Counted from the first letter of the stretch, positions 1 to 54,493 are shown. The stretch: 64,000 nt of DNA from an uncultured Coriobacteriia bacterium (GCA_963751505.1 CAVVUM010000011.1:8989-72988), one strand, 5' to 3'. Program-made: numbers and translations. Notes: a model not told the origin generated them from the letters alone.

Positions 1-959
1 CGACGACTGCGCCGGCTCGTTCGGCCAGAGGCACCGTGAAGGTGCCGGCGCCCGCGTAGAGGTCGGCGACGCGGTCGCTGCCGTCGGGCTCGAGCGCGTC
101 GAGAACGAGCTCGATGAGGCGCTCCGCGGCCTCGGTGTTCGTCTGGAAGAACGATGGCGCCGAGACGGTGAAGTCGAGCCCGCCCAGCCGCTCGCGCCAC
201 GCCCCTCTGCCCTGCAGGACCTCGACCTTGGTGACCGAGCGTCGCCGAACCTGCTCCTTGTACAGCACGCGAACCAGGCTCGTGACCGGGAGCGCCTGGC
301 CGATGACCTTCGCGGCGGCGCCTCGGGGAAACGGCCCAGGCGGTGTCCAGAGCGCCACCTCGACGTCCTTCGTGTGTCGAGCGGTGCGCACGGCGATCCG
401 TTCGATGCCGAGGTCCTCGGCCCCGCTCAGGTAGCGGAGGGCCCCCGCAAGCGCCTTGGGGGCCGTCCTGAGTCTCTTGGGGAGAAGGAGGCACGACTCG
501 ACGCGAACGACGTCGGTGGATGCCGACCGGTGGTAGCCGAGCGTGAACCGATCGGCGCCCGGATCCACGACAAACTCGACCTTGTTCCGGTAGCCGAGCG
601 GCGAGGGCGACGGGATGGCGGTTCCGACAAGGTCTTCGGCATCCGGCGACTCCGCCGATACGGGAGAGCGCGTCGACCACTGCGCGACGCTTGGCATCGA
701 GCTGCGCAGCGTAGGCGACATGCTGCCACTGGCACCCGCCGCACGCCCCGAAGTAGGGGCAAGGCGGCTCGATACGCTCGGGTGACGCGGTCAGCAGCTC
801 GGCTATCCGAGCACGTGCGAACCGAGGATGCTCCTCGGTGATCTCGATCGCAACCTGGTCGCCCGGGCAGGTGAGGGGCACGAAGACCGCCCGCCCGTCG
901 GGGAGATGCGCGACACCGTCGCCGCCGAAGGCGAGGCTCTCGATATCGACGGTGGGCAC
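1..959 (-). CDS. 23S rRNA (uracil-C5)-methyltransferase, RlmD/RumA family (TRAM + Fe-S + SAM MTase). The 3' end lies outside the window. One frame break near 648.
   Basis: Minus-strand translation from GTG (957-959) gives VPTVDIESLAFGGDGVAHLPDGRAVFVPLTCPGDQVAIEI (TRAM-like), CPYFGACGGCQWQH (Cys cluster), PSFFQTN and VADLYAGAGTFTVPLAERAG (SAM motif I). The post-break part has no Met start, so it is absent from the ORF track. Confidence 0.8.
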   Translation of the reverse strand, partial: MPTVDIESLAFGGDGVAHLPDGRAVFVPLTCPGDQVAIEITEEHPRFARARIAELLTASPERIEPPCPYFGACGGCQWQHVAYAAQLDAKRRAVVDALSRIGGVAGCRRPCRNRHPVALAARLPEQGRVCRGSGRRSVHARLPPVGIHRRRSRRVVPPSPQETQDGPQGACGGPPLPERGRGPRHRTDRRAHRSTHEGRRGGALDTAWAVSPRRRREGHRPGAPGHEPGSRAVQGAGSATLGHQGRGPAGQRGVARAAGRARLHRLGAIVLPDEHRGRGAPHRARSRRARARRQRPRRRPLRGRRHLHGASGRTSRRSR

Positions 960-1116
960 TGCTGCGGATCCCTTCGTTCGGCGGCAGTCCCATGCTACCC
1001 GAGCGCGGGGGCTATAGAGCACGCCTACTCAAGCCGATACCACAAGAGGACACGCGTTCAACGTGGGCGGGGGAGCCACGGTTCCCGACCGCCGACCGCC
1101 GAGGAGGTCGCTTTTC

Positions 1117-1810
1117 GTGGGTGCGAAGATGGTACTGATCGTCCACGACGACACCACGTTCGTCGAACAGCTGAGGCGAGGACTGACGGCTACCGCGCCC
1201 GAAGTCGAGGTCGCCATAGCGTTGTCTGCGCCACGCGCGCTGGGCATGGTCGCCGCCGAGACTCCCGACGTCATCGTCGTCGACGCCGAGTTGGTGGGCG
1301 TGGACGGCTACGCGCTGACGCAGCAGCTCAAGTCCGACCCCAAGACCAAGGACGTCCCCGTGGTCATCGTCACGCTCTCGCCGAGCGAGTCCTCGGCGCT
1401 GCGCGCACGGCAGGCGGGCGCGGCCGCCCACCTCGCCGCGGCAGGGCCGCTCGACGCGATCGTCAGCAAGGTCGTTGCACTCACCGGCCAGACCGACGCG
1501 GCGGCTCCCGCTTCGCCGCCGCCCGTCTCGGCACCGGTCAACGATTCAGCCTCCAGCGGGCCCGCGTCGATCAATGGCTTCGCGGTTCCCGAGGTGACGC
1601 CGTCGGCCGCCGCAGCGACTGTGCCCGAGGTGCCGGCCTCGGTCCCGTCGCCGGCGGCCGCCGTCGCCACGGCGCCTGCCGCGGCGCAGGCCCCGTCGGC
1701 CGTGGGACTGCTCGACTTGCCTGAGCTGCCCCAAGAGCCCGTGGCGCCCAGTGCCGTCGCCGAGCCCATGTCGTCGGTCGCGAGCGTCGCCGAGGCGCCC
1801 GCTGAGCGAG
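1117..1810 (+). CDS. Response-regulator receiver (REC) domain plus a ~190-aa Pro/Ala/Ser-rich linker. There is no stop before pilT, and a +1 shift near 1805 joins it to the PilT frame (probable REC-PilT fusion).
   Basis: ORF 1063..2559, first part: MVLIVHDDTTFVEQL...PDVIVVDAELVGVDGYALTQQLK...VPVVIVTLSPS (DD pocket, phospho-acceptor D, T). RBS gaggagg at 1101-1107 favours GTG 1117 (ATG 1129 is the alternative). After ~1810 this frame becomes Arg-rich nonsense, while frame 2 continues EAPADAPIMPGYAG... into PilT. Confidence 0.6.
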
Positions 1811-1831
1811 GCGCCGGCAGATGCGCCGATC

Positions 1832-3010
1832 ATGCCAGGCTACGCCGGCCCGGCAGAGGCGCGCGGCTCAGGCAACGCGCCGTTCGGCTCGTGTCCCTCA
1901 GTCTCGGTATCCGAGTCCGTCCCCAACCTCGACTCGGACGAAGTACCCCACATCGACGATCTACTGCGGCTCATGCTGCAGCGCGGCGGTTCCGACCTGC
2001 ACGTGACCGTCGGGAGCCCCCCGGGCATCCGCCAGCGCGGCGATATCATTCCGATCGAGAGCGTGAAGCCGCTGTCGCAGCGCGACACGATGGAGATGAT
2101 CCTGTCGCTACTCTCCGAGGAGCAGCGCCGACGCTTCGAGACCGAACTCGAACTCGACTTCGCCTACTCCATACCTGGCGTCTCGCGATTCCGCGCCAAC
2201 GTCTTCCAGCAGCGCAACTCGATGGGCGCCGTGTTCCGCGTCATTCCCATCGAGATCCCGACGATGCAGGACCTCGGACTCCCCAAGGTCTGTCAGGTCC
2301 TTGCCGAGCGCCCGCGCGGGCTCGTTCTCGTGACCGGCCCGACCGGCTCGGGCAAGTCGACGACGCTCGCCGCGATGATCGACCACATCAACGAGACCCG
2401 ACCGGTCCACATCATCACGCTCGAGGACCCGATCGAGTTCATGCACCGCAACAAGAGGGCGTTCATCAACCAGCGCGAGGTCGGCGAGGACACGCACTCG
2501 TTCTCGTCGGCCCTCAAGCGCGTTCTGCGTCAGGACCCCGACGTCATCCTCGTCGGTGAGATGCGCGACCTCGAGACCATCTCGGCGGCCATCACCGCTG
2601 CCGAGACCGGACACCTCGTGCTCGCGACGCTGCACACCACGGGCGGTCCCGAAACCGTCGACCGCGTGATCGACGTGTTCCCGCCGCATCAGCAGCAGCA
2701 GGTCCGCATGCAGCTCTCGACCACGCTCGAGGGCGTTCTGTCGCAGACACTGCTACGCTCGACCGACGGACGCAGCCGCGTGATGGCGATGGAGATCATG
2801 CTCGGCATCCCCGCGATATCGAACCTGATCCGCGAGGGAAAGACGCACCAGATGGAGACGATCATCCAGGGCGGCGCGCAGTTGGGTATGCAGACGCTCG
2901 ACCAGCATCTCAAGACGCTGCTCAATCAGGGTAAAGTCACCTTCGAAGAGGCCGTCAGCAAGGCGAAGAATCCTCGCGAACTCGCTAACATGGTGGGACG
3001 CAAACTCTAG
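1832..3010 (+). CDS. pilT: Type IV pilus retraction ATPase PilT (ATPase core; may be the C-terminal part of a REC-PilT fusion).
   Basis: ORF 1751..3010. Walker A GPTGSGKSTT, Walker B DVILVGEMRD, His box GHLVLATLHT, PilT signature AISNLIREGKTHQ. Intact frame. Confidence 0.9.
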   Translation: MPGYAGPAEARGSGNAPFGSCPSVSVSESVPNLDSDEVPHIDDLLRLMLQRGGSDLHVTVGSPPGIRQRGDIIPIESVKPLSQRDTMEMILSLLSEEQRRRFETELELDFAYSIPGVSRFRANVFQQRNSMGAVFRVIPIEIPTMQDLGLPKVCQVLAERPRGLVLVTGPTGSGKSTTLAAMIDHINETRPVHIITLEDPIEFMHRNKRAFINQREVGEDTHSFSSALKRVLRQDPDVILVGEMRDLETISAAITAAETGHLVLATLHTTGGPETVDRVIDVFPPHQQQQVRMQLSTTLEGVLSQTLLRSTDGRSRVMAMEIMLGIPAISNLIREGKTHQMETIIQGGAQLGMQTLDQHLKTLLNQGKVTFEEAVSKAKNPRELANMVGRKL

Positions 3011-3032
3011 GGGCCAGGTCATACACGCCGAA

Positions 3033-3068
3033 CGGCGGGCCTCCCTCCTGGGGCCCGCCGTTTCTTAT
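3033..3068 (+). terminator. Rho-independent terminator after pilT.
   Basis: Stem cggcgggcc (3033-3041) pairs with ggcccgccg (3052-3060). 10-nt loop, then tttcttatt. Confidence 0.75.
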
Positions 3069-3083
3069 TGGAGGAGAGGGTCC

Positions 3084-3833
3084 ATGGACACGCTGTACGC
3101 GGGGACAGGGAGCGGTCTCGGGACCGACGTGACGGACGTCGTCGTGATGCCGGTCTTCAACGAGGCCGGAACCGTGGGCCCGGTGCTTGACGCCGTCCGC
3201 GAGCACTATGCGGGCGAGATCATCGTCATCGATGACGGCTCGACCGACGGGACCGCGCTGGTGCTCGCCCGGCGCTCCGACGTGGCGGTGGTCTCGCTCG
3301 ACCGCAACTGCGGCTACGGCTGCGCCTTGAGGCTCGGCTTCGACGTCGCGCGCGAGCTCGGCGGCGAACGCGTCATCACCATGGACTGCGACGGGCAGCA
3401 CGAACCCGCCCACATCCCGCAGTTCCTCGAGGCGCTGACCGGAGACTGGGACATCGTCTCCGGCAGCCGCTACCTGCCCGGAAGCGGCGCCAATGGGGCC
3501 GCGCCGGCTGACCGTCAGGAGATCAACCGAGCGATCACCGCGCTGGTGAACGGGGCGACCGGGTGGAGCCTCACCGACTCCTTCTGCGGCTTCAAGGCCT
3601 ACCGCGCGGAGGCGCTCGCGCGGGTGCGACTCAGCGAGCCGGGCTACGCCATGCCGCTCGAACTGTGGGCCCACGCGTGGCGCGCAGGCTTGCGCGTGCG
3701 CGAGCTGGCGGTCGAGAGGATCTACTGCGACCGTGAGCGGTCGTTCGGCGCCGACCTCGACGACCCCGAGCAGCGACTCGCGTACTACCTCGAGGTGTGG
3801 GAGCGAGCGCTCGAGCAGGAGGTGGGAACGTGA
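3084..3833 (+). CDS. Family-2 glycosyltransferase (DPM1/GtrB-like, soluble).
   Basis: ORF 3084..3833, intact. VVMPVFNEAGTV, IIVIDDGSTDGT, DxD-type MDCDGQH. RBS ggaggag 3070-3076. Confidence 0.8.
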   Translation: MDTLYAGTGSGLGTDVTDVVVMPVFNEAGTVGPVLDAVREHYAGEIIVIDDGSTDGTALVLARRSDVAVVSLDRNCGYGCALRLGFDVARELGGERVITMDCDGQHEPAHIPQFLEALTGDWDIVSGSRYLPGSGANGAAPADRQEINRAITALVNGATGWSLTDSFCGFKAYRAEALARVRLSEPGYAMPLELWAHAWRAGLRVRELAVERIYCDRERSFGADLDDPEQRLAYYLEVWERALEQEVGT

Positions 3834-4526
3834 CAGACGCGGGCTACGATGCCGTGTGCGTTGGCGCGCATCCTGACGACGTCGAGATCGGCATGGGCGC
3901 TACGATCGCGAAGATGACCGCCGCGGGCAGGCGGGTCGCCATCGTCGACCTCACGAACGGCGAACCCACGCCGCACGGGAGCGTCGAGGTCCGGGCAGCC
4001 GAGAGCGCTCGCGCAGCCGAAATTCTCGGCGTGCAGGTGCGGCGCACGCTCACCCAGCCGAATCGCTACCTCTTCGACACCGTCGAGGCGCGGACCGAGC
4101 TTGCCGAGGTGCTGCGCGAGCTGCGCCCCCGCATGCTCTTCATCCCGTACGCCGAGGACGCCCACCCCGATCACATCGCCGCGTCGTCGATAGCGGTGGC
4201 CGCGCGCTTCTACAGCAAGTTCACCAAGACCTCGATGGCAGGCGAGCCTTTCTACCCGGCCCGGGTGTTCCGGTACATGGCGGTGCACCTGCGCGTCGTC
4301 GCTCAGCCCACCTTCGTCGTCGAATGCGCCGACTACCTGCCGCGCAAGCTCGACGCGCTTGCGCGCCTATCACTCGCAGTTCGGGATGAACCCCGGGAAT
4401 GCGGGCATCATCGCCAGCATGGAGCAGGCCGCGCGCATGTGGGGAGCGATGGCGAACGTCTCGGCTGCCGAGCCGTTCTTCGCGCTCGAGACGCCGGCGC
4501 TGTCGACCCCCGACGAGATCCTCTAG
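3830..4526 (+). CDS. PIG-L/LmbE-family N-acetylglucosaminyl deacetylase (BshB/MshB-like). One +1 frame break at 4359-4360.
   Basis: GTG 3830 overlaps the GT2 stop (GTGA). AVCVGAHPDDVEIGMGATIAK, EDAHPDHIAAS. Removing one t from gcgcttgcgcgcc restores KLDALRAYHSQFGMNPGNAGII...ETPALSTPDEIL, stop 4524-4526. Confidence 0.8.
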
Positions 4527-4536
4527 GAGACCTCTG

Positions 4537-6124
4537 ATGGTGCGAGCGCGCCCCGGCCTGCCGGCCGGTCACGGTGAGCTGCTGGAGTCACCCGCCTTCG
4601 CCGAGTGGGCCTCGATCGTCTCAGGCAACCGGGAGCTTCTGGCGACCCACGACTTCGACGTCGCCGGCGTGCCAGCTCGCGTCGTTGCGCGAGCTGGCTC
4701 GGCGAGAGAGTGCCGACGCCGCGACGACCTTCTCGGCGAGGCTGGGCGTGCCGGTGAAGCGGCTCGATCCCGGCTCGGCGATCGTGATGACCGGGCACCA
4801 GCCCGAGCTCTACCACCCCGGTGTGTGGGTGAAGGACTTCTTGCTCCAGCGCCTGTCCGAGGAGACTGGCGCGAGCGCGATCGACGTGGTCGTGGACTCC
4901 GACGGGTTCGACACGGTCTCGGTCAGCCGCGCCGTGCCTCGCACCGGAGGTCCGACGCTGCCGTCAGTACCTCGCGGTCGGCACGCCTTCGAGCTGCTAC
5001 GCGTGCACGCCTCCGCCCGAGCCGCGCGCGATCGAGGACTTCTGTCGGCAGGGCGACGAGATGCTCGCGACGCTGCCGGCGCCCTCGGTTCGGCGGCACT
5101 TCTCGGAGTTCTGCGGTTGTCTGCGCTCCGCTGCCGCTGACGGGCGCACGCTGGCGGAGGTCGTGACCTTCGCGCGGCGACGCTACGAGGCCTCGGCGGG
5201 CACGGACTACGCCGAGCTGCCGGTCACCGAGCTCGTCGCGAGGACGCGCCTTCGCGACGTTCGTGGTCGGACCTCGCGCGCCGACGCGGAGCGGTTCGCC
5301 GCGGTCTACAACGCCGAGCTCGACGCGTTCCGTGCGCCGCACGGGCGTTCGCTCGGCCGCGCAGCCGTTCCCCGACCTCAAGTCGGACGCCGCATCGGGG
5401 CGCGTGGAGCTGCCGCTCTGGGTACTCGGCGACGGTCGTCGCGAGACGCTGTGGGTGCAGCGACGCGGACGGCGCCGTCGTCCTGTTCGCGGGCGACGCG
5501 GAGCTGCTGGCGCTTCCCGCCGACGCGCAGTCGGCCGTCGAGGCGCTGACGCGCCTCGGGGTCGCACGATCGCGCCCAAGGCGCTCGCGCTCACGCTGTT
5601 CGTTCGGCTGTTCTGCTGCGACCTGTTCATCCACGGCGTGGGTGGCGGCCGCTACGACCAGGTCACCGACGGGGTGTGCAGGGCGCTACTACGGAGTGGA
5701 GCCGCCGGCCTTCGTCGTGGCGTCGCTCACGATGTACCTGCCGCTCGGGGCGCATCTCGTGAGCGAGGAGGAGGTTTCCGCAGCGCGAGAGCGTCTGAAC
5801 CGCGTGGAGCACAACCCCGACGCGCTGCTCGCCGAGGCGCAGTTCGAGTCCGCCGGTCGAGGCGGAGCGTGCGCGCGACCTTGCGGCCGAGAAGGCGACG
5901 CTGGTTGCGGCGATCGCGGCGCCCGGCGCCGACAAGAAGGCGCTCGGCCTGCGGATCCGCGAGGTCAACGCCGAGCTCGCGCAGCTGCTCGACCCCTTCG
6001 CGAGGAGCTGCGACGACAGCTCGCCTCGCTCGAATCGCAGCGTGCGTCGACCGAGGTCTTCACCGACCGGACGTACCCGTTCTGCCTCTGGTCGCCCGAC
6101 GAGGTCGCCGACAAGGTGCGGTGA
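4537..6124 (+). CDS. Conserved hypothetical ~529-aa protein, possibly a distant BshC-like ligase. At least 10 frame breaks as sequenced.
   Basis: RBS aggaga 4525-4530, ATG 4537. Stitched across ORFs 4399/4574/5061/5263/5642: ...AIVMTGHQPELYHPGVWVKDFLLQRL...IDVVVDSDGFD...AERFAAVYNAELDAF...GRVELPLWVLGDGRRETLWVQ...LFCCDLFIHGVGGGRYDQVTDGV...YYGVEPPAFVVASLTMYLPLG. The C-terminal heptad-like region reads ERARDLAAEKATLVAAI...REVNAELAQLL...EELRRQLASLESQ. That this is a gene is solid; the function is a guess. Confidence 0.5.
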
Positions 6125-6175
6125 CGGCGGGGTCGGCACGCGTGGCGGCGATTCCGCGCGGCGGGGCGCGCGAGA

Positions 6176-6204
6176 TTGCCGAGCACCTCGTCGCGCGCTA
6201 GTAT
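6176..6204 (+). promoter_or_regulatory. Sigma-70-like promoter for the ferredoxin gene.
   Basis: TTGCCG (6176-6181), 17-nt spacer, TAGTAT (6199-6204). About 50 nt upstream of ATG 6254. Confidence 0.45.
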
Positions 6205-6253
6205 GCGTCCCACCGTGAGCGCCATGCGCTAGTGTCAGCAGAAAGGACCGCCC

Positions 6254-6430
6254 ATGTCTGTGCCCGTCGTCGATCCGAATCTGTGCACCGCGTGCGGCAT
6301 CTGCGTGGACGAGTGCCCGCAGAGCTGCTACGACCTCGAGGACATCGCGCGGCTGAACCGCCCCGATGACTGCACCGAGTGCGGCATCTGCGTGGACTCG
6401 TGCCCCAACGCCGCGATCTCGATGGACTAG
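6254..6430 (+). CDS. 2x[4Fe-4S] mini-ferredoxin, 58 aa (below the ORF-track length cutoff).
   Basis: My translation: MSVPVVDPNLCTACGICVDECPQSCYDLEDIARLNRPDDCTECGICVDSCPNAAISMD. It has two CxxCxxCxxxCP motifs. RBS gaaagga at 6241-6247. Confidence 0.85.
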   Translation: MSVPVVDPNLCTACGICVDECPQSCYDLEDIARLNRPDDCTECGICVDSCPNAAISMD

Positions 6431-6458
6431 CGGTTCGAGAACAACCAGATCCGCGAAC

Positions 6459-6484
6459 GAGGGCCGGGAGTCATCCCGGCCCTC
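6459..6484. terminator. Bidirectional hairpin between the convergent ferredoxin and plsY genes.
   Basis: gagggccggga-gtca-tcccggccctc, a perfect 11-bp stem. The T-tract is weak. Confidence 0.55.
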
Positions 6485-6511
6485 GGTGCGTTCTACAGGG
6501 CGCGAGCAGGG

Positions 6512-7225
6512 TCAGCCGCGCGGCCCCATCCGGTCGTTGATGTAGAGCTTGGGCTCCTTGCCCTGAAGCAGGCCGACGAAGCGACGATGGTGTGCCGCGT
6601 ACACGAACAGCCCCATGAGCAGCGCGAAGGCCCAGTCGGGCGATCCAAGGAGCAGCGCCGTCGCCGGGAGGGTGAGGGCGGCCGCCACCTGGCCGGCCAT
6701 CATGTAGCGGGTGATCGCGATGACCGTGAGCCCGACGACCACCACGGCGACGAAGTAGCGCCAGTCGTAGGCGAGCAGCGCGCCGCCGCCGGTCGCGAGC
6801 CCCTTGCCCGTGCGCGTGAAGCGCCGCTTGATGAGCGCCATCCACAGCGAGTAGTTGTGACCGACCACCGCGCCGGCCACCGCGAGCTGCACGAAGAGGT
6901 AGGCCATGAGCACGGCGCGCGAGTCGATGGGGCCGAGCGTCACCCCGGTCGGGGCGATCAGGAGTAGCGCCGGGAATGGCGAGGTACTTGGCGACGGCGA
7001 CCGGGCACGAAGCCTTTGAAGCGCGTCGGCGAACATCGCGACGACGAACCAGCCCCACGAGCCGGTCGAGCGGCGCACGTTCATGGCGCCCACGTTGCCG
7101 GTGCCGTGCGCGGTGATGTCCTCGCCGGTGACGAGCCGGACGATGATGTAGGCGAAGGGGATCGAGCCGACCAGGTAGGCGGCGGCCAGCGAGCAGCGCG
7201 AGATCGCCCACGCTCAGCGTGGTCA
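6512..7225 (-). CDS. plsY: Glycerol-3-phosphate acyltransferase PlsY. Two frame breaks (~7010, ~6965).
   Basis: GTG at 7223-7225. LLAAAYLVGSIPFAYIIVRLVTGEDITAHGTGNVGAMNVRRSTG (pieces in the 6471..7871 and 6512..7093 ORFs), HNYSLWM, KGLATGGGALLA. Confidence 0.85.
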
Positions 7226-8227: not shown

Positions 8228-8303
8228 GCCCTCTTAGCTCAGTGGATAGAGCGTCTGCCTCCGGAGCAGAAGGTCGCAGGTTCGAATCCTGCAGAGGGCG
8301 CCA
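8228..8303 (+). tRNA. tRNA-Arg (anticodon CCG), CCA encoded.
   Basis: Cloverleaf by eye. Acceptor gccctct/agagggc, D arm gctc-agtggata-gagc, anticodon arm tctgc-ctCCGga-gcaga, T arm gcagg-ttcgaat-cctgc, discriminator g, then cca. Confidence 0.9.
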
Positions 8304-44523: not shown

Positions 44524-44576
44524 CACGCTTCCGGGTGGTGCCATATCGACTGCGGGTTCCTCGGCAGGTGTGCGCT

Positions 44577-44586
44577 TGCTAGACTA
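44577..44586 (+). promoter_or_regulatory. Putative extended -10 element (TGCTAGACTA) for lepA. It implies a leaderless or near-leaderless mRNA.
   Basis: tgcTAGACTa. The hexamer ends at 44585 and the ATG is at 44594. No Shine-Dalgarno in between. Confidence 0.4.
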
Positions 44587-44593
44587 GACCGCC

Positions 44594-46396
44594 ATGACGC
44601 AGCCTGACCACATACGGAACTTCTCGATCATCGCGCACATCGACCACGGGAAGTCCACGCTCGCCGACCGGATCCTCGAACTCACGCACACGGTGCAGGA
44701 GCGCGACATGGTCGAGCAGGTGCTGGACTCGATGGACATCGAGCGCGAGCGAGGCATCACCATCAAGGCGCAGGCCGTGAGGGTGATGTTCGAGTCGTCG
44801 GACGGCCAGACCTACCAGCTCAATCTCATCGACACCCCTGGGCACGTCGACTTCACCTACGAGGTCTCCCGTTCGCTCGAGGCGTGCGAGGGCGTGCTGC
44901 TCGTCGTGGACGCCGCGCAGGGAGTGGAGGCGCAGACGGTCGCGAACGCTCTGATGGCCATGAACGCGGGGCTCGAGATCATCCCGCTCATCAACAAGAT
45001 CGATCTGCCTGCGGCGGACCCCGAGCGCGTGCGGCATGAGATCGAGGAGGGCCTCGCCATCCCCGCTGACGAGGCCGTTCTCACGAGCGCCAAGTCCGGG
45101 GTCGGCGTCCTCGATGCACTCGAAGCGGTCGTGCGCCGCGTTCCCGCGCCGAGCGGAGACCCCGCGCGCCGCTCAAGGCGCTGATCTTCGACTCGTACTT
45201 CGATGAGTATCGCGGCGTGGTCGCGCTCATTCGAGTGATCGACGGGAGCGTGCGCAAGGGTCTCAAGGTGCGCATGATGGCCACCAGAACGGTGACCGAC
45301 GTCGAGGAGGTCGGGGTCAGGCGCCCGGCCAACATCCCGGTCGGCGAGCTCGGAGTGGGTGAGGTCGGGTACTTGATCACCGGGCTCAAGGACCCCGCTC
45401 TGGTGAAGGTCGGTGACACGGTCACCCTGGCGAAACACGGTGCGACCGAGCCGCTTCCCGGCTACCGCGAGGTCAAGCCGATGGTGTTCACCGGGCTGTT
45501 CCCCATCGATGGTGACCAGTACCCGGAGCTGCGCGACGCTCTCGACAGACTCAGCCTGAACGACCCCGCGCTGATCTACGAACCCGAGTCGAGCCATGCT
45601 CTTGGCTTCGGGTTCCGCGTCGGATTCCTCGGGTTGCTGCACATGGAGGTCGTCAAAGGAACGCCTCGAGCGCGAGTTCGACCTGGATCTTCTGGCGACT
45701 GCGCCAAGCGTCGAGTACCACGCGTTTCTCACGAACGGTGAGATGAAGATCCTGCACTCACCGCAAGACATGCCTGATCCGGCGAAGCTCGAGCGGATGG
45801 AGGAGCCCTACCTGAAGGCGACGGTCCTCGTGCCGCCGGACTTCGTCGGGGCGGTGATGGAGCTGACCCAAGGTCGCCGGGCTACTTTCAAAGACATGCA
45901 GTACCTCTCGGCGACCACCGTCGAGATGCACTACGAGATGCCGCTTTCCGAGCTGATCATGGACTTCTTCGACCAACTCAAGAGCCGTACAAAGGGCTAC
46001 GCCTCACTCGACTACGAGTATCTCGGCTATCGGCCCGGTGAGCTCGTGAAACTCGACATCCTTCTTGCAGGCAAGCCGGTGGACGCTCTGAGCTTCATCG
46101 TCCACAAAGACAAGGCCTACGACCGCGGCAAGGTCCTTACCGAGAAGCTGCGCGGCATCATCCCCAGGCAGATGTTCGAGGTGCCGATCCAGGCGGCCAT
46201 CGGTGGACGCATCCTTGCCCGCGAGACCGTGCGCGCCAAGCGCAAGGACGTGCTCGCGAAGTGCTACGGCGGCGATATCACCCGCAAGCGCAAGCTTCTG
46301 GAGAAGCAGAAGAAGGGCAAGAAGCGGATGAAGAACATCGGCTCGGTCGAGGTGCCGCAGGAGGCGTTCATGGCGATCCTGAAAGTCGATGACTGA
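44594..46396 (+). CDS. lepA: Elongation factor 4 (LepA). Two frame breaks (~45170, ~45655).
   Basis: [52 protein letters not shown]-terminal [16 protein letters not shown]. Confidence 0.95.
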
Positions 46397-47653
46397 GCAG
46401 GGCGGATCGAGCGCTGACCTGGGCCCGGTACTCGAGAGCGCCGTCCGAGGCCCCGCACTTCCTGCGCACCTCTACCTGCACGTGCCGTTCTGTCGTTCGA
46501 AGTGCGCCTACTGCGACTTCGCCTCCGTCGTACCCACCGACGACACATCGTGCGCGCCGTGTTCTCGGGGATGCGTGCCGAGATCGTTCGCTGGGCCGCG
46601 GCCTGTCTTCCCGGCGTGGTCGAGACCGTCTACGTAGGCGGTGGCACGCCGTCGCTGTTCGCCGAGGAAGTCGCCGACCTGCTCGACTGGGTGCAGCAGC
46701 AGCTGCCGGTGCGCGCGGGTGCCGAGATCACGGTGGAGGCAAACCCCGACTCGCTGGATGCCGTGTCGCTCGAACTTCTTCGCGCCGGCGGCGCCAACCG
46801 CATCAGCCTCGGCGTGCAGTCCTTCGACGACGGGGTCTTGCAGTTCCTCGGCCGTGCGCACGATGCGTCGGGCGCATGGCGCGCCTGCGAGCTCGTGCGC
46901 GAGTCGGGAGTGGAGCTTTCGGTCGATCTCATGTGCGGCGTGCCGACAGACATCGCCGCGAGCGCGGATCACTGGTCACACAGCCTGTCGTCGGCCCTCG
47001 CAAGCGGTGCGCCTCACCTGAGCGTCTACCCGCTGCAGGTCGAGGAGGGCACCCCGCTCGAGGGGCGAGTGGCCAGGGGCGCCGTGGCTCTGCCCGACGA
47101 GGATGCGGTCGCCGACGAGCTCATCTTGGCGCGCGACACGCTCGAAGCGCGAGGACTTCGGCGCTACGAGGTCGCCAACTACGCGCGCGCAGGCCACGAG
47201 GCGCGCCACAACACCGCGTACTGGCTCGGCAACCCCTACATCGGAGTCGGACCATCTGCGCACGGCATGCTTGACGCTGCCACCGCCGAGGTTCTCGGCC
47301 TGATCGACGGCGTGTCCCCCGAGGCCGCACGGGTGCGCTACGCGCAGGCCCGGACGATCGAGGGCTGGCTCACCGGCGAGCGGACCGAGGTCGAGGTCCT
47401 GACCGCGCGCGAGGCGGCGCGCGAGAACGTGATGCTCGGCCTGCGGCTGACCGACGGCGTGAGCGCGGTCGCCGTTCGCGATGCGGGTGTCGAGCCGGTT
47501 CTGGAGGGACTCCTCGCCGACGGCCTGGTCGAGCGCGCAGGGGAGTCGGGGCACCCGCGATGGCGGGTCACGGACCGCGGCTGGCTGCTCGGCAACGAGG
47601 TCTTCGGGCGGGTCTGGCTCGCCGACGAGGATGAAGGGCGCGAGCTGTCGTAG
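46389..47653 (+). CDS. hemW: Radical SAM heme chaperone HemW (HemN-like, oxygen-independent coproporphyrinogen oxidase family). One break near 46545.
   Basis: [17 protein letters not shown] (CxxxCxxC), [37 protein letters not shown]. Confidence 0.85.
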
Positions 47654-47676
47654 CACTCGGTATACTTGAGTGCCAG
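47650..47676 (+). promoter_or_regulatory. CIRCE operator (HrcA binding site).
   Basis: gTAGCACTC-ggtatactt-GAGTGCcAg, compared with the consensus TTAGCACTC-N9-GAGTGCTAA. It overlaps the hemW stop and sits 36 nt upstream of the hrcA ATG. Confidence 0.8.
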
Positions 47677-47711
47677 CCACAGCAGGAAGTGGCGAGTCGA
47701 AAAGGACCCGG

Positions 47712-48734
47712 ATGCTGAACGACCGCCGGCGAAGCGTCTTGAAGGCGCTCGTCGAGGAGTACATAGCGAGCGCCCAGCCGGTGGGCAGCAGAACGCTCGT
47801 GGAGCGCTACGAGCTCGGCTGCAGCCCCGCCACCGTGCGCAACGAACTCGCGATTCTGGAGGAGACCGGCTTCGTCGTGCAGCCGCACGTCTCAGCTGGG
47901 CGTCTGCCGACCGACACAGGCTATCGCGACTTCGTCGACCGCTTGCTCGAGCAGGCGCTCGAACGCGACGCCAGCGTCGCCGCGATGCCGCAGGTCGCCG
48001 AGGTCGACGACCTGCTGCGCGAAGCGACTTCGCTGCTCACCAGACTCACCGACTCGCTCGCGATCGTGCTTGCGCCGAGCGTGTCGCTCGCGCGCGTGAA
48101 GCGGGTGGACTTGCTCTCGATGGCCCCGCGGCGGGCGCTCTTCGTGCTGATCACCGAGTCGGGGCAGGTACTCAACCGCCATATCGAGCTCGCCGAGGAC
48201 GCATCACCCGAGCGGCTGGCCGATATCGAGCGTTCGTTGAACGCGTCGTTCGTCGGCAAGCGGGAGGCGGAGATCCGCCCGCTGCGGGAGGCGCTCGCGC
48301 AAGCTCCCAGTTCGGCCGATGGCTCGGACGCGGACGCCGATGCGGGGCTGATGGTCGCCGTGCTCGACGAGATCCTCGACGCCCTCGGCGAGGCCGACCG
48401 CGACCGCTTGCACCACGTGGGCGTGCCGGCCCTACTCGCGCAGCCCGAGTTCCACGATGCCGACCGCGCCCGCCCCGTCATCACCTGCGTGGAGGACGGG
48501 CTCGCGCTGCTCGACACGCTCTCGGCAGTACTTGGCCGAGACGGAGTGTGGGTGAGCATCGGGCACGAGAACCAGCGCGAGGAGCTCGATCACACGAGCG
48601 TCGTCGCCGTGCGGTTCGGCTCCCGTGAGTCGGACGGCGTCATCGGCGTGCTCGGCCCCACCCGGATGGACTACCATCGCGCCATCGAGGCCGTTCGCGC
48701 AGTCGCCGACGGTCTCTCCGGCGCCCTGAGCTGA
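47712..48734 (+). CDS. hrcA: Heat-inducible transcription repressor HrcA.
   Basis: ATG 47712 within ORF 47670..48734. [54 protein letters not shown]. Intact. Confidence 0.92.
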
Positions 48735-48780
48735 GATCCCGAGACGATGCGCGGCCCGCAGTGGGCCGCATGAGGAAGGA

Positions 48781-49957
48781 ATGACGTTGCCAGCTGGTAC
48801 TAGGGACTACTACGAGGTGCTCGGCGTTGAGCGGGGCGCCTCGGCAGACGAGATCAAGAAGGCGTTTCGGCGCAGGGCGCGGGAGCTCCACCCCGACGTG
48901 AACAGCGCGCCCGACGCTGAGGACCGCTTCAAAGAGGTCAATGCCGCGTACGACGTGCTGTCCGATCCCGGCAAGCGCGAGCAGTACGACCGCTTCGGAA
49001 CGGTCGGACGCCCCAACGGAGGTCCCGGTGGCCCGGGCGGCCCGGGCGGGGGATACCAGTACGTCGATCTGAACGACCTGTTCGGCGGTGGCGCCGGCGG
49101 CTTCGACATGGGCGACTTGTTCAGCGCCTTCTTCGGAGGCGTCACCGGCGCGTGCCGGACGTGGCGTGCGTCTCGAGGGTCGCGACATGGCGATGTCCAT
49201 CGCGATCACGCTTGCCGAGGCCGCGAGCGGTGTCGAGAAGGAGATCGTCCTCGACCGCCTTGCGCCCTGCGAGGTCTGTGGCGGGTCCGGCTCGGCGGCG
49301 GACACCAACGTCGTGATGTGCAGCGAGTGCCAGGGCAGCGGACAGAAGGTCACGACGCGTCGCACGTTCCTCGGTACGATGCAGACGGCGGTTCCGTGCG
49401 ACCGTTGCGGTGGCGTGGGCAAGATCGTCGAGCACCCCTGCGACGAGTGCCAAGGCTCCGGGCGCGTGCCCGATCGCCAGCACGTGAACGTCACCGTGCC
49501 CGCCGGAATCCGCGACGGCCAGCAGATCAGGCTGCGCGGACTCGGGGAGGCGGGCATTCGCGGTGCCGCCGCGGGTGATCTCATCATCTCGGTGCGGGTC
49601 ACCCCCGACGACTTCCTGCATCGCGAGGGCGACGACCTGCATTGCAAGGCGACCGTATCGGTGACCCAGGCGTCCCTGGGCGCGGACCTGAAGGTCTGCG
49701 GCATCTTGGAGGACAACCAGATCAAGGTCCCGGCCGGTACGCAGCACGGCGACACGGTGCGCCTCAAGGGGCGCGGCATGCCTCGGTTCGGCGGGGGAGG
49801 CCGTGGCGACCTGGTCGTGCACCTCGGCATCGAAGTGCCCAAGAAGCTCACGAAGCGGCAGAAGGAGCTCATGCGCGAGCTTGCCGACGAGTTCGGAGAC
49901 GAGACGCGTCACGACAAGGGCGCGCTCGAACGCCTGCGGGACTGGCTCACGGGCTAG
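48781..49957 (+). CDS. dnaJ: Chaperone DnaJ. One +1 break at 49153.
   Basis: J domain DYYEVLGV...HPD. Gly-rich linker. Four CxxCxG zinc motifs ([32 protein letters not shown]). Confidence 0.92.
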
Positions 49958-49959
49958 CG

Positions 49960-50732
49960 ATGTCGGCACACCGCTTCTTCCTCGTCGATGACCTGGCCTG
50001 ACGGCCCAGGTCCCGTTCGGCTGCCACTCGACGGAGCCGACGTGCATCACGCAGTGCGCGCGCTTCGCCTCAAGCCCGGTGAGCTGGTCGAGGTCGTGGA
50101 GCCGTCGCGCGGGCGGTGCCTGCGCGTCGAGCTCACGACGTGCGGTGACGAGGGCCTCGCCGGGGAGGGTGCTCGGCGAAGTGACGCTCCCACCCGAGAC
50201 GCACGTCACTCTCGTGCTCGGCATCGCCAAGGGCGAGAAGATGGACCGGATCGTCCGGCACTGCGTCGAGCTGGGCGTCTCTTCGATAGCCCCGGTCGTC
50301 ACCGAGCGAACCGTCGTGCGCGTCGATGCCTCCCGGGGTGCCGAGAAGGCCGCACGGTGGGAGCGCATCGCCCGTGCTGCGGCCGAGCAGTCGCGCGCGG
50401 CCACGGCGCCACGCGTCCTCGAGCCCGTGCCGCTCGCCGGTGTGGGCGACCTGCTGGCCGAGCAGGACGCGGTCGTCGTCGTGTGGGAGGAGGCGTCCGG
50501 TCGCGGAGTCGCCGCGGCGCTTCGTGTTGCCGGCGCCGGCCCGGGCGCTCGCGTGGCGCTTGTGGTCGGTCCCGAAGGTGGCCTGAGTCCGTCCGAGGTC
50601 TCGGCCCTCGTCAGAGGCGGTGCGGTGACCGCCACGCTCGGGCCGAGGATTCTGCGCACCGAGACCGCGGCGGTCGTGGCGGTAGCGCTCGCCATGGAGG
50701 CGCTCGGGTTTCTCGGCGGAACCGATGAGTGA
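49960..50732 (+). CDS. rsmE: 16S rRNA (uracil1498-N3)-methyltransferase RsmE. Two +1 breaks (~49995, ~50165).
   Basis: MSAHRFFLVDD, HHAVRALRLKPGELVEV, VTLVLGIAKGEKMDRIV, LVVGPEGGLSPSEV, LGPRILRTETA. Confidence 0.85.
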
Positions 50733-51990
50733 GGAACTCGCCGTCGCGTTTCGGACGCTCGGCTGCAAGGTGAATCGTGCCGAGAGCGAAGACATCGCGG
50801 CGGATCTGCTCGGGAGGGGCGTGCGCGTCACCGACGCCGACCATGCTGCGGTCGTGGTGATCAACACCTGCACCGTGACAGCCGAGGCGGACGCGAAGGC
50901 GCGTAAGGCCGTCAGGCAGGCTCTTAAGGCCGCTGGAGGCCCGATCGTCGTGGTGACGGGCTGTCTTGCCGCGCTCGACGCGGATGCGCTGCGCGCCTTG
51001 GGATCTCGTGTCGTGGTCGAGGCCGACAAGAACGTCGTCGCGGACCGGGTGGCCGAGGCCCTCGAGCTGGCGGACCGGTCGGCTGCTGCGAGCCCGGTCC
51101 GTGTGGGCGAGGGGTTCCGTACGCGTGTCATGGTCAAGATCGAGGACGGCTGCGACGCCTTCTGCACCTACTGCATCGTCCCTCACGCGCGCGGCCTCCC
51201 GCGTGCCGTACCGCTGGATACCGTCGTCGGCGAGGTGGAGCGCCTTGTGGCCGCGGGCGTCAAGGAGGTCGTGCTCACCGGCATCAATCTCGGCCGGTAC
51301 CGGGATGGCGTCGCCGGTCTCGCAGCGGTCGTCGAGGCCGTCGCAGCGACCGGTGTGCGCCGGCTGCGCCTCTCGAGCATCGAGCCCATGGACCTCGACG
51401 ACCACCTGCTCGGCGTGCTAGCGGCCACACCCGCGTTCTGCGCGCACCTGCACGTGCCGCTCCAGAGCGGAAGCGATGCGGTGCTCTCGGCGATGGGGCG
51501 CGCCTACACACTGGCCGAGTACGCGGAACGGGTCAGTGCGGCGCGTGCTGCGCTGCCCGGACTGGCGCTCACGACCGACGTGATCGCCGGCTTCCCGGGC
51601 GAGACCGACCGCGATGCCGCGCGCACAGAGCAGGCGTGCGAGGAGCTCGCGTTCGCGAAGTTGCACGTGTTCCGCTACTCGGCCAGGACGGGCACGTCAG
51701 CTGCGGGAATGCCGCAGGTAGACCCGAGCTTGAGGCAGCGTCGCGCCGAAGGGCTCCGTAACCTCGACCACAGGTTGAGGGAGCGGTTCCTGACTGCCCA
51801 CGCAGGCAGTACCGCGGAGGTACTGGTGGAGCGGGTCGCCGACGGCTACGCCGAGGGGACGACCCGCGACTACATCCGAGTCGGCCTTGCGTGCCAGTCC
51901 GCGTGCGCGCCCGGGGATCTGGTCGGGGTCGTGCTCGGGGCGGGCGGTGCGGAGCCGCTATGCGGCAGTCTCGCACGCGGTCAGGCCTGA
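50725..51990 (+). CDS. mtaB: tRNA (N6-threonylcarbamoyladenosine) methylthiotransferase MtaB (MiaB-like radical SAM).
   Basis: ORF 50725..51990, intact. FRTLGCKVNRAESE, VINTCTVT, IEDGCDAFCTYCIVP, TDVIAGFPGET, TRAM-like C-terminus. Confidence 0.85.
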   Translation: MSEELAVAFRTLGCKVNRAESEDIAADLLGRGVRVTDADHAAVVVINTCTVTAEADAKARKAVRQALKAAGGPIVVVTGCLAALDADALRALGSRVVVEADKNVVADRVAEALELADRSAAASPVRVGEGFRTRVMVKIEDGCDAFCTYCIVPHARGLPRAVPLDTVVGEVERLVAAGVKEVVLTGINLGRYRDGVAGLAAVVEAVAATGVRRLRLSSIEPMDLDDHLLGVLAATPAFCAHLHVPLQSGSDAVLSAMGRAYTLAEYAERVSAARAALPGLALTTDVIAGFPGETDRDAARTEQACEELAFAKLHVFRYSARTGTSAAGMPQVDPSLRQRRAEGLRNLDHRLRERFLTAHAGSTAEVLVERVADGYAEGTTRDYIRVGLACQSACAPGDLVGVVLGAGGAEPLCGSLARGQA

Positions 51991-52004
51991 GCCACCCTCG
52001 GCGG

Positions 52005-52013
52005 TGGTAGAAT
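52005..52013 (+). promoter_or_regulatory. Extended -10 element TGGTAGAAT upstream of phoH.
   Basis: The same 9-mer as at 10592-10600. It lies 15 nt after the mtaB stop and ~64 nt before the phoH GTG. Confidence 0.45.
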
Positions 52014-52076
52014 CCAAGCACGCGAAGACGAACCCGAGCGGCGCACCCTCGAGATGCGCCAGACCTTGGAACCGAG

Positions 52077-53061
52077 GTGCCGATCACTTCCGTGGAAGCC
52101 ACTCAGATCCGACTCGTCGTCCCGCCCGACCTGGACATGACCAGACTGCTCGGGCAGGGGGACGCTCTCCTGCGCATCATCGAAGACGAGTTCGAATCCT
52201 GCGATCTCGGTGCGGGGCAACCAGATCACCATCGACGGGAACCCCGGTGACAGCCAGACCGTGTCGTCGCTGTTCGCCGAGATGATCCAGCTCGTCGAGC
52301 GCGGAGAGAACCTCACGCCCGACGCTGTCGAGCGATCCATCGAACTGCTCAAGCACAGCGAGTGCACGCCGACCGGGCTGCACGGCGATGTGATCCTCAC
52401 GCACAAGGGCAAAGCCATCCGGCCCAAGACAGCAGGACAGAAGCGCTACATCGACGCCATCCGCTGTCATACGGTCACCTTCGGGATCGGGCCGGCCGGC
52501 ACGGGCAAGACGTACCTCGCGATGGCCATGGCGGTTGACTCCCTGAAGCGCAAAGAGGTCGGCCGGATCATCCTCACCCGTCCGGCGGTCGAGGCAGGCG
52601 AGTCGCTCGGCTTTCTGCCCGGCACGCTTACCGAGAAGGTCGATCCCTACCTTCGCCCGCTCTACGACGCGCTGTTCGACATGATGGAGGCGGAGAAGTC
52701 CGCGGCGATGCTCGAACGTGGGACGATCGAGATCGCGCCGCTGGCCTACATGCGCGGGCGCACGCTCAACGACTCGTTCGTGATCCTCGACGAGGCGCAG
52801 AACACCACCCCCGAGCAGATGAAGATGTTCCTGACGCGACTGGGCTTCGGGTCCAAGATCGTCATCACCGGCGACGTGACCCAGATCGACCTGCCGCGCG
52901 GCCACTCCGGGCTCAAGCAGGTCAGATCCATCCTCGACGGCGTGGCTGATCTCACCTTTGTGGACCTCACCAGCAAGGACGTCGTGCGTCATCGCCTCGT
53001 CCAGCGCATCGTCTCGGCGTATCAGACCTTCGAAGAGGCGCGCGAGCAAGGCGATGACTAG
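52077..53061 (+). CDS. phoH: PhoH-like ATPase. One +1 break at 52200.
   Basis: Removing t52200 gives [55 protein letters not shown]. Confidence 0.9.
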
Positions 53062-54022
53062 CGGCCACCATCACGGCATCGGTGCGCATCGTGGCGCGAG
53101 CGCGGATGCCCGCTCGAGCCGGGTGACAGGCAGCACGCTGTTGCGCACCTTCGGCGTGCCCGTGGCGGCCGTGCTCGGTGGGGCTGCAGTTGCCGCGCTC
53201 GTCGCTGCGGCCACCCACTGGGCCGGGGCCGAATCGGCCGCCGTCTACGGCGCGCTCGGTGCGATCACCGCGGGCATCATCGGCACCCTGGGCTTGCGGG
53301 GCGCTCGCGAGGCCCACGCCGATCCCCGCGATGAGCTCGTTGCAGCGGCGAGCCCCCTGCATCCCCTGCAGAAGCGCCTGATGGCCGAGGCGCCGGGCAC
53401 CTACGTGCACTCGTTGGCCGTCGCGAACCTCTCGGAGACGGCTGCGGAAGCGGTGGGCGCCGACGCGCTGGTTGCGCGGGTGGGCGCGTACTACCACGAC
53501 ATCGGGAAGCTCGCCGACCCGTACTGCTTCTTCGAGAACTCGGAGGAGGGCGACTGCCCCCATCAGGGCACCGACCCCATCGCCGCCGCGCGGGTGATCA
53601 TGGCTCACGTCCCCGACGGCGCAGCGCTCGCGAGACAGAGCGGGCTGCCTGAGCAGGTGTGCGAGATCGTGAGCCAGCATCACGGGACGTCGCTCGTCCG
53701 CTACTTCTACCATCAGGCGGCGCTTCAGGATGCCGGGGTCTACGAGACCGACTTCCGCTATCCCGGTTCCCGTCCCCAGAGTCGGGAAGCCGCGATCGTC
53801 ATGATCGCCGATAGCAGCGAGGCCTCGGTGCGCGCGCTGGCCCAGCCGGACCCGTCGGAGGTGCGTGAGCGCGTCGGCGCCGTGCTTCGGGAGCGCAAGG
53901 CAGACGGGCAACTGGACGAGTGTGGGCTGACCGACGCCGAGCTCGGCACGATCGCGGACGTGATCGCCCGCGGACTCGTGAGCTTCCGCCACGTCCGCCT
54001 TGCCTACCCGGCGCCCGAATAG
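53054..54022 (+). CDS. Membrane-anchored HD-domain phosphohydrolase (PgpH/YqfF-like HD domain, without the long 7-TM receptor module).
   Basis: ATG 53054 inside ORF 52958..54022. Two predicted TM helices, then HSLAVANLSE...GAYYHDIGKL...VSQHHGTSLVRYFY...IVMIADSSEA. Confidence 0.75.
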   Translation: MTSGHHHGIGAHRGASADARSSRVTGSTLLRTFGVPVAAVLGGAAVAALVAAATHWAGAESAAVYGALGAITAGIIGTLGLRGAREAHADPRDELVAAASPLHPLQKRLMAEAPGTYVHSLAVANLSETAAEAVGADALVARVGAYYHDIGKLADPYCFFENSEEGDCPHQGTDPIAAARVIMAHVPDGAALARQSGLPEQVCEIVSQHHGTSLVRYFYHQAALQDAGVYETDFRYPGSRPQSREAAIVMIADSSEASVRALAQPDPSEVRERVGAVLRERKADGQLDECGLTDAELGTIADVIARGLVSFRHVRLAYPAPE

Positions 54023-54042
54023 CGCCCCGCGAGGAGGTGTCG

Positions 54043-54493
54043 ATGCAGATCAGCGTTGTCAGTCACCGCGAACCCGAACCGCTCGCCTTCGAGGCGTTCG
54101 TCGAGTTGGCGACGTTCGTCCTCGAGCGCGAAGACACACCGGACGCGGTCGAGCTCTCCGTCGCCGTGGTGGAGTGTCGAGGAGATCGCCGAACTGAACA
54201 CCCGCTTCCGCGGCAAGGACGGGCCCACCGACGTCCTCTCGTTTCCCTGCGACGACCCCTGCGCGGTGGTCGCTCCGGGCGAGCCCGTGACGCTCGGCGA
54301 CGTCGTCATCGCGCCGGAGATCGCCGAGCAGCAGGCCGCTGAGCTGGGGCACACGGTCGAAGAGGAACTCAATCTGCTGCTCGTCCACGGCGTGTTGCAC
54401 CTGCTCGGCTACGACCATATCGAGGACGTCGACGCCGCCGCGATGCAGTCCCGGGAGCGAGCACTGCTCGATGCCTGGGCGGCCTCGCGCTAG
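54043..54493 (+). CDS. ybeY: Endoribonuclease YbeY. One +1 break near 54171, the last break in the window.
   Basis: RBS gaggagg. GPTDVLSFP, zinc motif LLVHGVLHLLGYDH. Confidence 0.9.

Follow-up and report, generated by a model that had tools for sequence, protein, structure and literature searches.

Over most of the 64,000-bp stretch of DNA analysed here (the window), genes can be followed only by changing reading frame every few hundred bases, which raises the question of whether these genes are broken in the organism or only in its sequence record. The window is part of a public 98,740-bp contig from an uncultured Coriobacteriia-like actinobacterium, and its gene neighbourhood is a conserved one of largely housekeeping character, including pilT, an EF-G paralogue, a NiFe hydrogenase, mreBCD-mrdA-rodA, rng, rplU-rpmA-obg-proBA, leuS, comEA/EC-holA, lepA, hrcA-dnaJ, era and glyQS.

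Number and distribution of frame breaks

Intact orthologues from six related genomes (including L001, L081, L085, L088 and L090) were run against the window with a frameshift-tolerant protein-versus-DNA aligner written for this analysis. L001 and L081 represent a single NODE contig of short-read style from a binchicken co-assembly MAG, L088 is a NODE-named MAG contig, L090 is a Logan short-read assembly, and L085 is an ENA contig. Each intact orthologue from the six relatives matched the window in 2–16 frame-shifted pieces, bearing out the statement of the first-pass annotation that almost every gene up to about 54.2 kb is frame-broken. The merged catalogue comprises 147 frame breaks between positions 644 and 54,175, or about one per 370 bp, with 128 events of sign +1, 14 of sign −1 and five of sign +2. 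The earlier hand count of about 130 breaks (about one per 400 bp) was a slight undercount, and the frameshift-aware protein alignment proposed with it, which counts the shifts and their sign, returned mostly +1 events. Of the sites that had been resolved by hand, 9526, 17195 (here 17194), 18968, 49153 and 52200 were recovered exactly or within 1 nt; at 4359/4360, for which protein alignment gives 4364, removing the T at either 4359 or 4360 restores the peptide originally proposed.

The break rate in the window far exceeds the noise of the aligner. Short-read-assembled relatives compared with each other by the same procedure showed 0 and 1 events in 18 kb, and a comparison of L088 with L090 over the genes worst hit in the window showed 0 events in 7.2 kb, against 147 events in 54 kb of the window. 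A further control on ComEC (L081 versus L087) likewise gave 0 events, and in the dense block at 4300–7100 the calls based on L088 and on L090 were concordant site by site.

Breaks are clustered, as had been claimed (variance-to-mean ratio of 2.3 in 1-kb bins, p = 2e-7), with 5–8 events per kb in dense blocks and fewer than 1 per kb in sparse ones (Table 1). The densest block covers the hydrogenase operon, which encodes a Fer4 subunit, a FAD/NAD subunit, a small subunit and a large subunit according to the Pfam names of the orthologues. Event density correlates weakly with local G+C at the 1-kb scale (rho 0.36). A spacing of the dense blocks of about 10 kb was rejected as a regular period, and a dependence of event density on gene conservation was also rejected; such a dependence would be expected had the consensus profited from reads of related strains, but Obg, ProA and ProB contain many breaks despite their strong conservation.

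Table 1. Coordinates of the main features of the window.
Feature	Position	Strand	Content
Error-laden part	1–54175		147 frame-breaking indels, about 94% single extra bases; about 40 genes on both strands
Clean stretch in noisy zone	1711–4364	+	PilT ATPase domain and GT2 gene; 0 events
Dense block	4300–7100		15 events (5.4 per kb); PIG-L gene end, 525-aa gene, plsY (3 events)
525-aa gene	4537–6121		11 events
tRNA-Arg(CCG)	8228–8303	+	Intact
Densest block	13500–17200	+	31 events (8.4 per kb); four-gene NiFe hydrogenase operon
Dense block	24400–26900	+	14 events; DUF697 gene end, B12-binding radical-SAM gene (9 events), DUF2344
Near-clean stretch	26900–30500	+	rng, rplU, rpmA, 5' two-thirds of obg; single event at 28570
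Dense block	30500–33400	+	20 events; 3' third of obg, proB, proA
tRNA-Ala(GGC)	37231–37306	+	Intact
leuS	37475–40010	+	Breaks at 37553, 37659, 38383, 39461 (+2), 39655, 39719
Dense block	40300–44000	+	21 events; comEA, comEC, holA
Sparse block	44000–54175	+	7 events in 10.2 kb (0.7 per kb) at 45160 (−1), 45655, 46556 (−1), 49153, 50195, 52200 and 54173–54175; lepA, hemN-like, hrcA, dnaJ, rsmE, mtaB, phoH, HD gene, ybeY
Clean tail	54176–64000		0 events, genes intact; in order ybeY 3' end, dgkA/PAP2, CNNM/CorC, cdd, era, deoC, recO, glyQ, glyS, PPDK regulator, start of next gene

Several of the original per-gene counts held, namely at least ten breaks in the gene at 4537–6124 (11 counted), about 12 in proBA (12–13), six in the essential, single-copy leuS (6) and about five in holA (4–5 in the holA region). 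Other genes were heavily broken as described, but the numbers given had been too low: 31 breaks rather than about 24 were counted in the hydrogenase operon (13.3–17.2 kb), 12–15 rather than about ten in comEC, and seven rather than about five in obg. The stretches listed as free of breaks proved clean again, comprising that of the PilT domain and GT2 gene, 17194–18968, most of rng, rplU-rpmA, hrcA and mtaB.

The last 9.8 kb of the window, past 54,175, are free of events, which has a probability of 3e-12 at the mean rate and of roughly 1e-3 (exp(−7)) even at the rate of the sparse block at 44–54 kb. RecO, GlyQ and GlyS have ORF lengths in this tail that match those of their homologues, and no frame breaks were found with L081 proteins over 54.5–58.6 kb. 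The clean tail behind the reported end of the breaks near 54.18 kb is therefore real, but the transition is not one sharp step, the density being 0.7 per kb already from 44 kb.

Nature of the extra bases and selection on the corrected genes

Where a relative with 88–89% DNA identity was available, breaks were resolved at the base level, and about 94% of the events so resolved consist of one extra base. Comparison of the window with L085 (89% DNA identity) over 20 kb revealed 58 one-base insertions and 15 apparent one-base deletions, at least four of which are extra bases in L085 itself, as shown by L001 proteins. Five true one-base deletions are left over 19.5–54 kb, and the ratio of insertions to deletions in the window is about 15 to 1. 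Several of the −1 events, considered as candidates for real deletions, were rejected as such, since DNA comparison splits them into two closely spaced +1 events (31114/31122; 31204/31214). The JGI contigs L084 and L086 (88–93% DNA identity) are short and resolve few sites, L084 stopping about 1 nt before 49153.

Among 45 uniquely placed insertions, 29 are isolated, 12 make a run of two and four make a run of three identical bases, and none lies in a run of four or more. Isolated insertions are more frequent than expected under random placement (64% versus 49%), and 45% of them split a pair of identical bases, against an expectation of about 21%. Apart from this tendency, no sequence motif was found at the insertion sites, and G+C content within 10 nt on either side was no different from background (p = 0.22). 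The inserted bases themselves have a G+C content of 67%, compared with 69% for the genome. The earlier description of the extra bases as all non-homopolymer holds in that they have no homopolymer tie, but 16 of the 45 extend a run to two or three bases, and one of the sites on which it was based, 4359/4360, is itself TT.

After removal of the extra bases, no in-frame stop was found in 7,372 codons, and the corrected genes gave dN/dS values of 0.05–0.28. Even those genes compared with L085 that carry 5–9 breaks have dN/dS of 0.05–0.12 (obg 0.065, proA 0.05, radical-SAM gene 0.12). The top values of 0.27–0.28 belong to the 525-aa gene, with its 11 breaks, and a DAGK-like gene, both compared with L090, a more distant relative. 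Once corrected, the broken genes are 85–96% identical to those of the sister species. Purifying selection on the corrected genes is strong, with no sign of relaxation; the low dN/dS together with the lack of in-frame stops excludes real pseudogenization.

Genuine pseudogenization or genome decay, either in the organism or in relic DNA of a dead lineage, would produce many broken genes and a few true deletions, both of which are seen here. Pseudogene-rich genomes in decay, such as those of Mycobacterium leprae, Sodalis and recent host-restricted pathogens, also contain many frameshifted genes. Such genomes combine frameshift with nonsense mutations, dN/dS near 1 and a deletion bias, whereas the window lacks nonsense codons and its excess of insertions is the reverse of that bias. 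Essential single-copy genes are broken repeatedly, as first noted (leuS 6, obg 7, mreBCD, mrdA, rodA, plsY and holA); moreover, the relatives are intact and an adjoining 10 kb of the same contig is flawless. Decay is accordingly highly improbable as the source of the breaks.

Origin of the frame breaks

Exact public protein entries (NCBI, ENA) from the 98,740-bp contig correspond to the frameshift-truncated products of the window, namely Rng (470 aa, its tail out of frame), Obg (312 aa), LepA (196 aa) and PBP2 (218 aa). HrcA of the window is 100% identical to P0121 from that contig. Because the truncated products are already exact public entries, deliberate corruption of the window, which had been offered as a fallback explanation, is excluded. 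Insertion of random bases into positions 1–54,180 of an error-free sequence, as might be done to make a test decoy, would agree with almost purely single-base insertions, no homopolymer link and a defined end point. However, besides sitting in the deposited record, the events are overdispersed rather than uniform, the inserted bases track genome composition instead of accounting for 25% each, and an independent public contig carries the same signature, which leaves such a manipulation with hardly any credibility.

This independent contig, ENA contig_18941 (67 kb), has a Flye-style name and belongs to a sister species. It contains 37 events in 33 kb, five of them within the first 16 kb and 32 over the 17.5 kb that follow; they are mostly +1, clustered and without homopolymer tie, and their positions differ from those in the window. 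One near-coincident site was observed in phoH, which is compatible with chance. The short-read-assembled relatives L004, L005, L088 and L090 are clean of the signature. A scan of genome contigs for a genome of the same species found none, the best match being Rng at 85% amino acid identity.

Programmed +1 frameshifting is known from prfB in bacteria and occurs genome-wide in Euplotes. Pervasive recoding of this kind, through programmed +1 ribosomal frameshifting, transcriptional slippage or RNA editing that restores the frames, would fit the near-uniform +1 sign and the many +1 breaks of the sister contig, as an extra base needs a +1 shift to be read through. Programmed sites have a conserved motif and a shift in orthologues, whereas the roughly 150 sites of the window lie at arbitrary codons in heterogeneous contexts, with no common motif, slippery run or stop codon, and the orthologues in the six relatives are unshifted. 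Except for the near-coincidence in phoH, the window and the sister contig do not share break positions, and both the short-read assemblies of the clade and 10 kb of ordinary genes on the same contig are free of breaks. Recoding is in our view even less credible than decay, and the probability of any truly biological reading, be it recoding or real mutations, is negligible.

We conclude, with a probability of about 0.93, that the frame breaks are residual consensus errors of an insertion-rich, underpolished long-read assembly, for which we infer the long-read platform and the link to read depth. The first-pass annotation had likewise read the breaks as a quality signature and not as pseudogenization, and single extra bases, purifying selection, the lack of nonsense codons and the similar second contig agree with it; as to the cause that it named (noisy long reads, uneven depth and insufficient polishing), the artefact is supported and this particular origin is the best available explanation. 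In the organism the genes are intact, the breaks having been introduced during sequencing and assembly. The stray bases most probably stem from an insertion-rich long-read consensus without adequate polishing, and the kilobase-scale error blocks may represent places with locally poor depth or polishing support. The errors thin out past 44 kb and cease at 54,175.

Frameshifts caused by small indels are a known weakness of low-coverage long-read assemblies, and in raw PacBio CLR reads insertions occur at about 8%, deletions at 3% and substitutions at 2% (bioRxiv 10.1101/2021.08.23.457338). The window resembles long-read assemblies with indel errors (PacBio CLR or Nanopore) in that ORFs are split relative to intact orthologues in otherwise conserved sequence, errors gather in blocks where support may have been poor, annotation inflates pseudogenes and fragments, and a Flye-style sister contig has the same signature. 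A PacBio-CLR-type profile would have more insertions than deletions and more deletions than substitutions, at positions that depend little on sequence. The surplus of insertions, the missing nonsense changes and the weak context in the window would be compatible with such a profile, although errors left in a consensus may be distributed differently from those of raw reads. Indels in Nanopore consensus sequences are typically reported as linked to homopolymers (PMC9262707). Errors of that type would comprise homopolymer indels with deletions at least as frequent as insertions, unlike the window with its insertions of about 94%, 29 of 45 of them isolated and none in a run of four or more. Such a profile is unusual for the most common kind of long-read metagenome data and points to a chemistry rich in insertions or to an artefact of the assembler or polisher.

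An artefact of a different sub-type, mixed-strain consensus, would keep both alleles in series at polymorphic sites and thereby create an extra base, so that blocks richer in strain variation gather more insertions. Insertions that are composition-matched, clustered in blocks and without homopolymer link are consistent with it, as are the sister populations with 88–94% DNA identity present in public metagenomes. However, density does not follow conservation, with obg and proA being 95% identical to the sister species and carrying seven events each, and we consider mixed strains an unlikely source.

Consequences for annotation and public records

As consensus errors already in the public record, the breaks matter for database quality and not for biology; the finding is relevant to data hygiene alone and reveals no new biology. 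Automatic annotation of the contig will fill essential genes with about 150 calls of fragments, pseudogenes and spurious Arg-rich ORFs, and genome completeness estimates will come out too low. Truncated proteins have already spread into public protein collections as cluster representatives. The genes are recoverable through frameshift-aware correction against the relatives found here, and indel-truncated proteins are addressed in general by the IDEEL test, proovframe and MEGAN-LR/DIAMOND frameshift-aware alignment.

We tentatively raise the possibility, which we do not favour, that the almost pure single-base insertion signature is the fingerprint of one assembler or polisher failure mode, perhaps affecting many of the long contigs in ENA and NCBI that come from uncultured lineages of high G+C. 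If so, systematic detection and repair would be possible. The features that suggest such a failure mode are the missing homopolymer link, the splitting of identical-base pairs and the kilobase-scale blocks, and a wide spread of it is supported by seven truncated proteins among the 23 EF-G homologues that the clade has on contigs of 50 kb or longer.

Census of frame breaks and controls

The window has a G+C content of 69%, and nearly all of its genes lie on the plus strand. Its nearest relatives are uncultured Coriobacteriia/Actinomycetota MAGs, in which the gene order of the window is kept (see table; gene names are taken from Pfam hits of orthologues). Searched by tblastn, intact ORFs from the syntenic locus of L001, a NODE-named contig of a co-assembly MAG, yielded several HSPs per gene spread over different plus frames of the window. 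Orthologues from L001 and L081 (same contig), L088 (another NODE-named MAG contig), L090 (a Logan short-read assembly) and L085 (ENA contig_18941, sister species) were then aligned with the window by a purpose-built dynamic-programming aligner, which matches protein to DNA and treats +1, -1 and +2 frameshifts as explicit moves.

The merged catalogue contains 147 events between 644 and 54,175 (128 +1, 14 -1 and five +2), or one per ~370 bp, which confirms the pervasive frame breaks described in the first-pass annotation. Independent references placed events at the same sites, with L088 and L090 concordant for 11 of 11 breaks in the gene at 4537-6121. In controls run through this aligner, L001 proteins gave zero and one events against the short-read-assembled relatives L004 and L005, respectively, in ~18 kb each; L088 proteins gave none against 7.2 kb of L090, including the worst-hit 525-aa gene, and L081 ComEC gave none against L087. 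All six sites previously resolved by hand were recovered, five of them (9526, 17195, placed here at 17194, 18968, 49153 and 52200) within 1 nt. The sixth (4359/4360) was placed at 4364 by protein alignment; removal of one T, either 4359 or 4360, yields the peptide proposed in the first-pass annotation. The earlier list of clean stretches agrees with our census, as do the per-gene counts overall, although these were modestly low for the hydrogenase operon (31 here), comEC (12-15) and obg (7).

Features of the window and blocks of event density
Feature	Position	Detail
Gene order, block 1		response-regulator-PilT gene, GT2, PIG-L, 525-aa gene
Gene order, block 2		plsY, DAGK-like gene, EF-G paralogue (- strand)
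Gene order, block 3		PPIase, TPR gene, ndk, four-gene NiFe hydrogenase
Gene order, block 4		radC, mreBCD, mrdA, rodA, radical-SAM gene
Gene order, block 5		rng, rplU, rpmA, obg, proBA, nadD, rsfS, leuS
Gene order, block 6		comEA, comEC, holA, rpsT
Gene order, block 7		lepA, hemN-like, hrcA, dnaJ, rsmE, mtaB, phoH, ybeY
Gene order, block 8		dgkA, corC, cdd, era, deoC, recO, glyQS
Receiver-PilT fusion	1126-3007	response-regulator receiver domain N-terminal to PilT-like ATPase; same in L088 (555 aa); domains in separate frames here, break near 1711 in low-complexity linker
NiFe hydrogenase operon	13316-17230	cytoplasmic type, between ndk and radC; Fer4 subunit, FAD/NAD-binding subunit, small subunit, HoxH-like large subunit; arrangement kept in L088; peak error density of the window (8.4 events per kb)
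tRNA-Arg(CCG)	8228-8303	scored intact (73.7 bits), though within the noisy zone
tRNA-Ala(GGC)	37231-37306	scored intact (66.1 bits), though within the noisy zone
Dense blocks	4.3-7.1, 13.5-17.2, 24.4-26.9, 30.5-33.4, 40.3-44.0 kb	5-8 events per kb
Sparse blocks	0-4.3, 17.2-24.4, 26.9-30.5 kb	1 event per kb or fewer

Distribution and nature of the inserted bases

Events per kb are overdispersed (variance-to-mean ratio 2.3, p = 2e-7) and only weakly related to local G+C (rho 0.36). Density falls to 0.7 per kb from 44 to 54.2 kb, and the 9.8 kb past 54,175 contain no events (P = 3e-12 at the mean rate and roughly 1e-3 at the sparse rate). Up to ~54 kb, third-codon-position G+C switches phase at intervals of a few hundred bases; beyond this it does so only at gene boundaries.

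L085 and L087 are overlapping pieces of a single ENA contig (ERZ25039503 contig_18941, 67,217 bp) with 88-89% DNA identity to the window at 19.5-58.7 kb. Relative to L085, one base is inserted at 58 places in the window and one base is deleted at 15. L001 proteins show at least four of these 15 deletions to be extra bases of L085 itself; several protein-level -1 events are pairs of close +1 events, and only five true one-base deletions occur from 19.5 to 54 kb (25905, 30534, 35958, ~45165 and ~46545). Thus, ~94% of the events are single extra bases.

Among 45 uniquely placeable inserted bases, 29 differ from both neighbours (49% expected for random placement of a composition-weighted base), 12 create a run of two, four a run of three, and none lies in a run of four or more. 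The earlier description of all insertions as non-homopolymer was therefore overstated, although homopolymer dependence is clearly lacking. The G+C of the inserted bases (67%) is like that of the genome. Isolated insertions split a pair of identical bases in 45% of cases (background ~21%), a context effect that stands out; their removal leaves GG in 8/29, CC in 3/29 and AA in 2/29. Examples are found at 21215, 25082, 25992, 26884, 41703, 42170, 49153 and 54173, and L087 has extra bases of similar appearance. Such splitting may be a fingerprint of sequencing chemistry or polisher.

Selection on bridged genes and the public record

The broken genes include leuS, obg, mreBCD, mrdA, rodA, plsY and holA. 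Were these genes truly decaying, with indels at half a percent, nonsense codons, relaxed dN/dS and deletion bias would be expected as well, and none of these was observed. With frameshifts bridged, no in-frame stop occurs in 7,372 aligned codons, and protein identity to the sister species is 85-96%. In genes compared with L085, dN/dS is 0.05-0.12 even with 5-9 breaks (obg 0.065, proB 0.068, proA 0.05, radical SAM 0.12); the highest values (0.27-0.28) belong to the 525-aa gene (11 breaks) and the DAGK-like gene, both compared with the more distant L090. These genes are not pseudogenes, and the first-pass interpretation of a sequence-quality signature is supported.

Deliberate corruption, the alternative raised earlier, is refuted by the public record. 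P0121, a public (NCBI and ENA) protein encoded on a 98,740-bp contig, matches HrcA of the window at 100% identity, and frameshift-truncated products of the window are exact public entries from this same contig: Rng (470 aa, with an out-of-frame tail), Obg (312 aa), LepA (196 aa) and PBP2 (218 aa). The extra bases therefore belong to the deposited record. The frame breaks are an artefact of the public assembly and no biological feature. In practice, they call for caution in annotation and in protein databases into which the truncated products have already passed.

Probable source of the error and related public contigs

Small-indel frameshifts remain in long-read assemblies at insufficient coverage (bioRxiv 10.1101/2021.08.23.457338). 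Insertion errors left in a long-read consensus, accompanied by locally poor depth or polishing, are inferred to be the best-supported cause of the breaks. In raw PacBio CLR reads, insertions (~8%) outnumber deletions (3%) and substitutions (2%; bioRxiv 10.1101/2021.08.23.457338). Nanopore consensus indels are chiefly homopolymer-linked (PMC9262707), unlike the insertions here. Classic nanopore homopolymer error therefore appears to fit the profile less well than an insertion-rich chemistry or an artefact of polishing or strain merging would.

The sister contig, which bears a Flye-style name and provides an independent case of such breaks, is nearly clean over its first 16 kb (five events, all compatible with extra bases), and 32 events (25 of them +1) fall in the following 17.5 kb. 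They are clustered, with the same isolated-base look, at sites other than those of the window. Among homologues of the EF-G paralogue on ENA/NCBI contigs of at least 50 kb, 7/23 are truncated (225, 225, 316, 342, 436, 555 and 663 aa vs. 683-686 aa), and the gene is unbroken in the short-read relatives L088 and L090. These truncations suggest that public data commonly include long-contig assemblies of this clade with frameshifts.

The L085/L087 contig is frameshift-laden from ~24 kb on, with breaks in holA, lepA, hemN-like, hrcA, dnaJ, rsmE, mtaB, phoH, cdd and era and a fused deoC-recO. In phoH, both contigs carry an extra base around the EFES/DISV junction (window 52200 and L087 14198), within ~3 nt of each other; this near-coincidence is compatible with chance, given ~30 events per contig, and could also hint at context-specific error. 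In L086, a JGI metagenome contig (3300009120) from a population 93% identical, ~300 bp of obg is missing relative to the window (L086 2025/2026 corresponds to window 29894/30196) and obg is called as two genes, whether through a genuine deletion or through misassembly of short reads.
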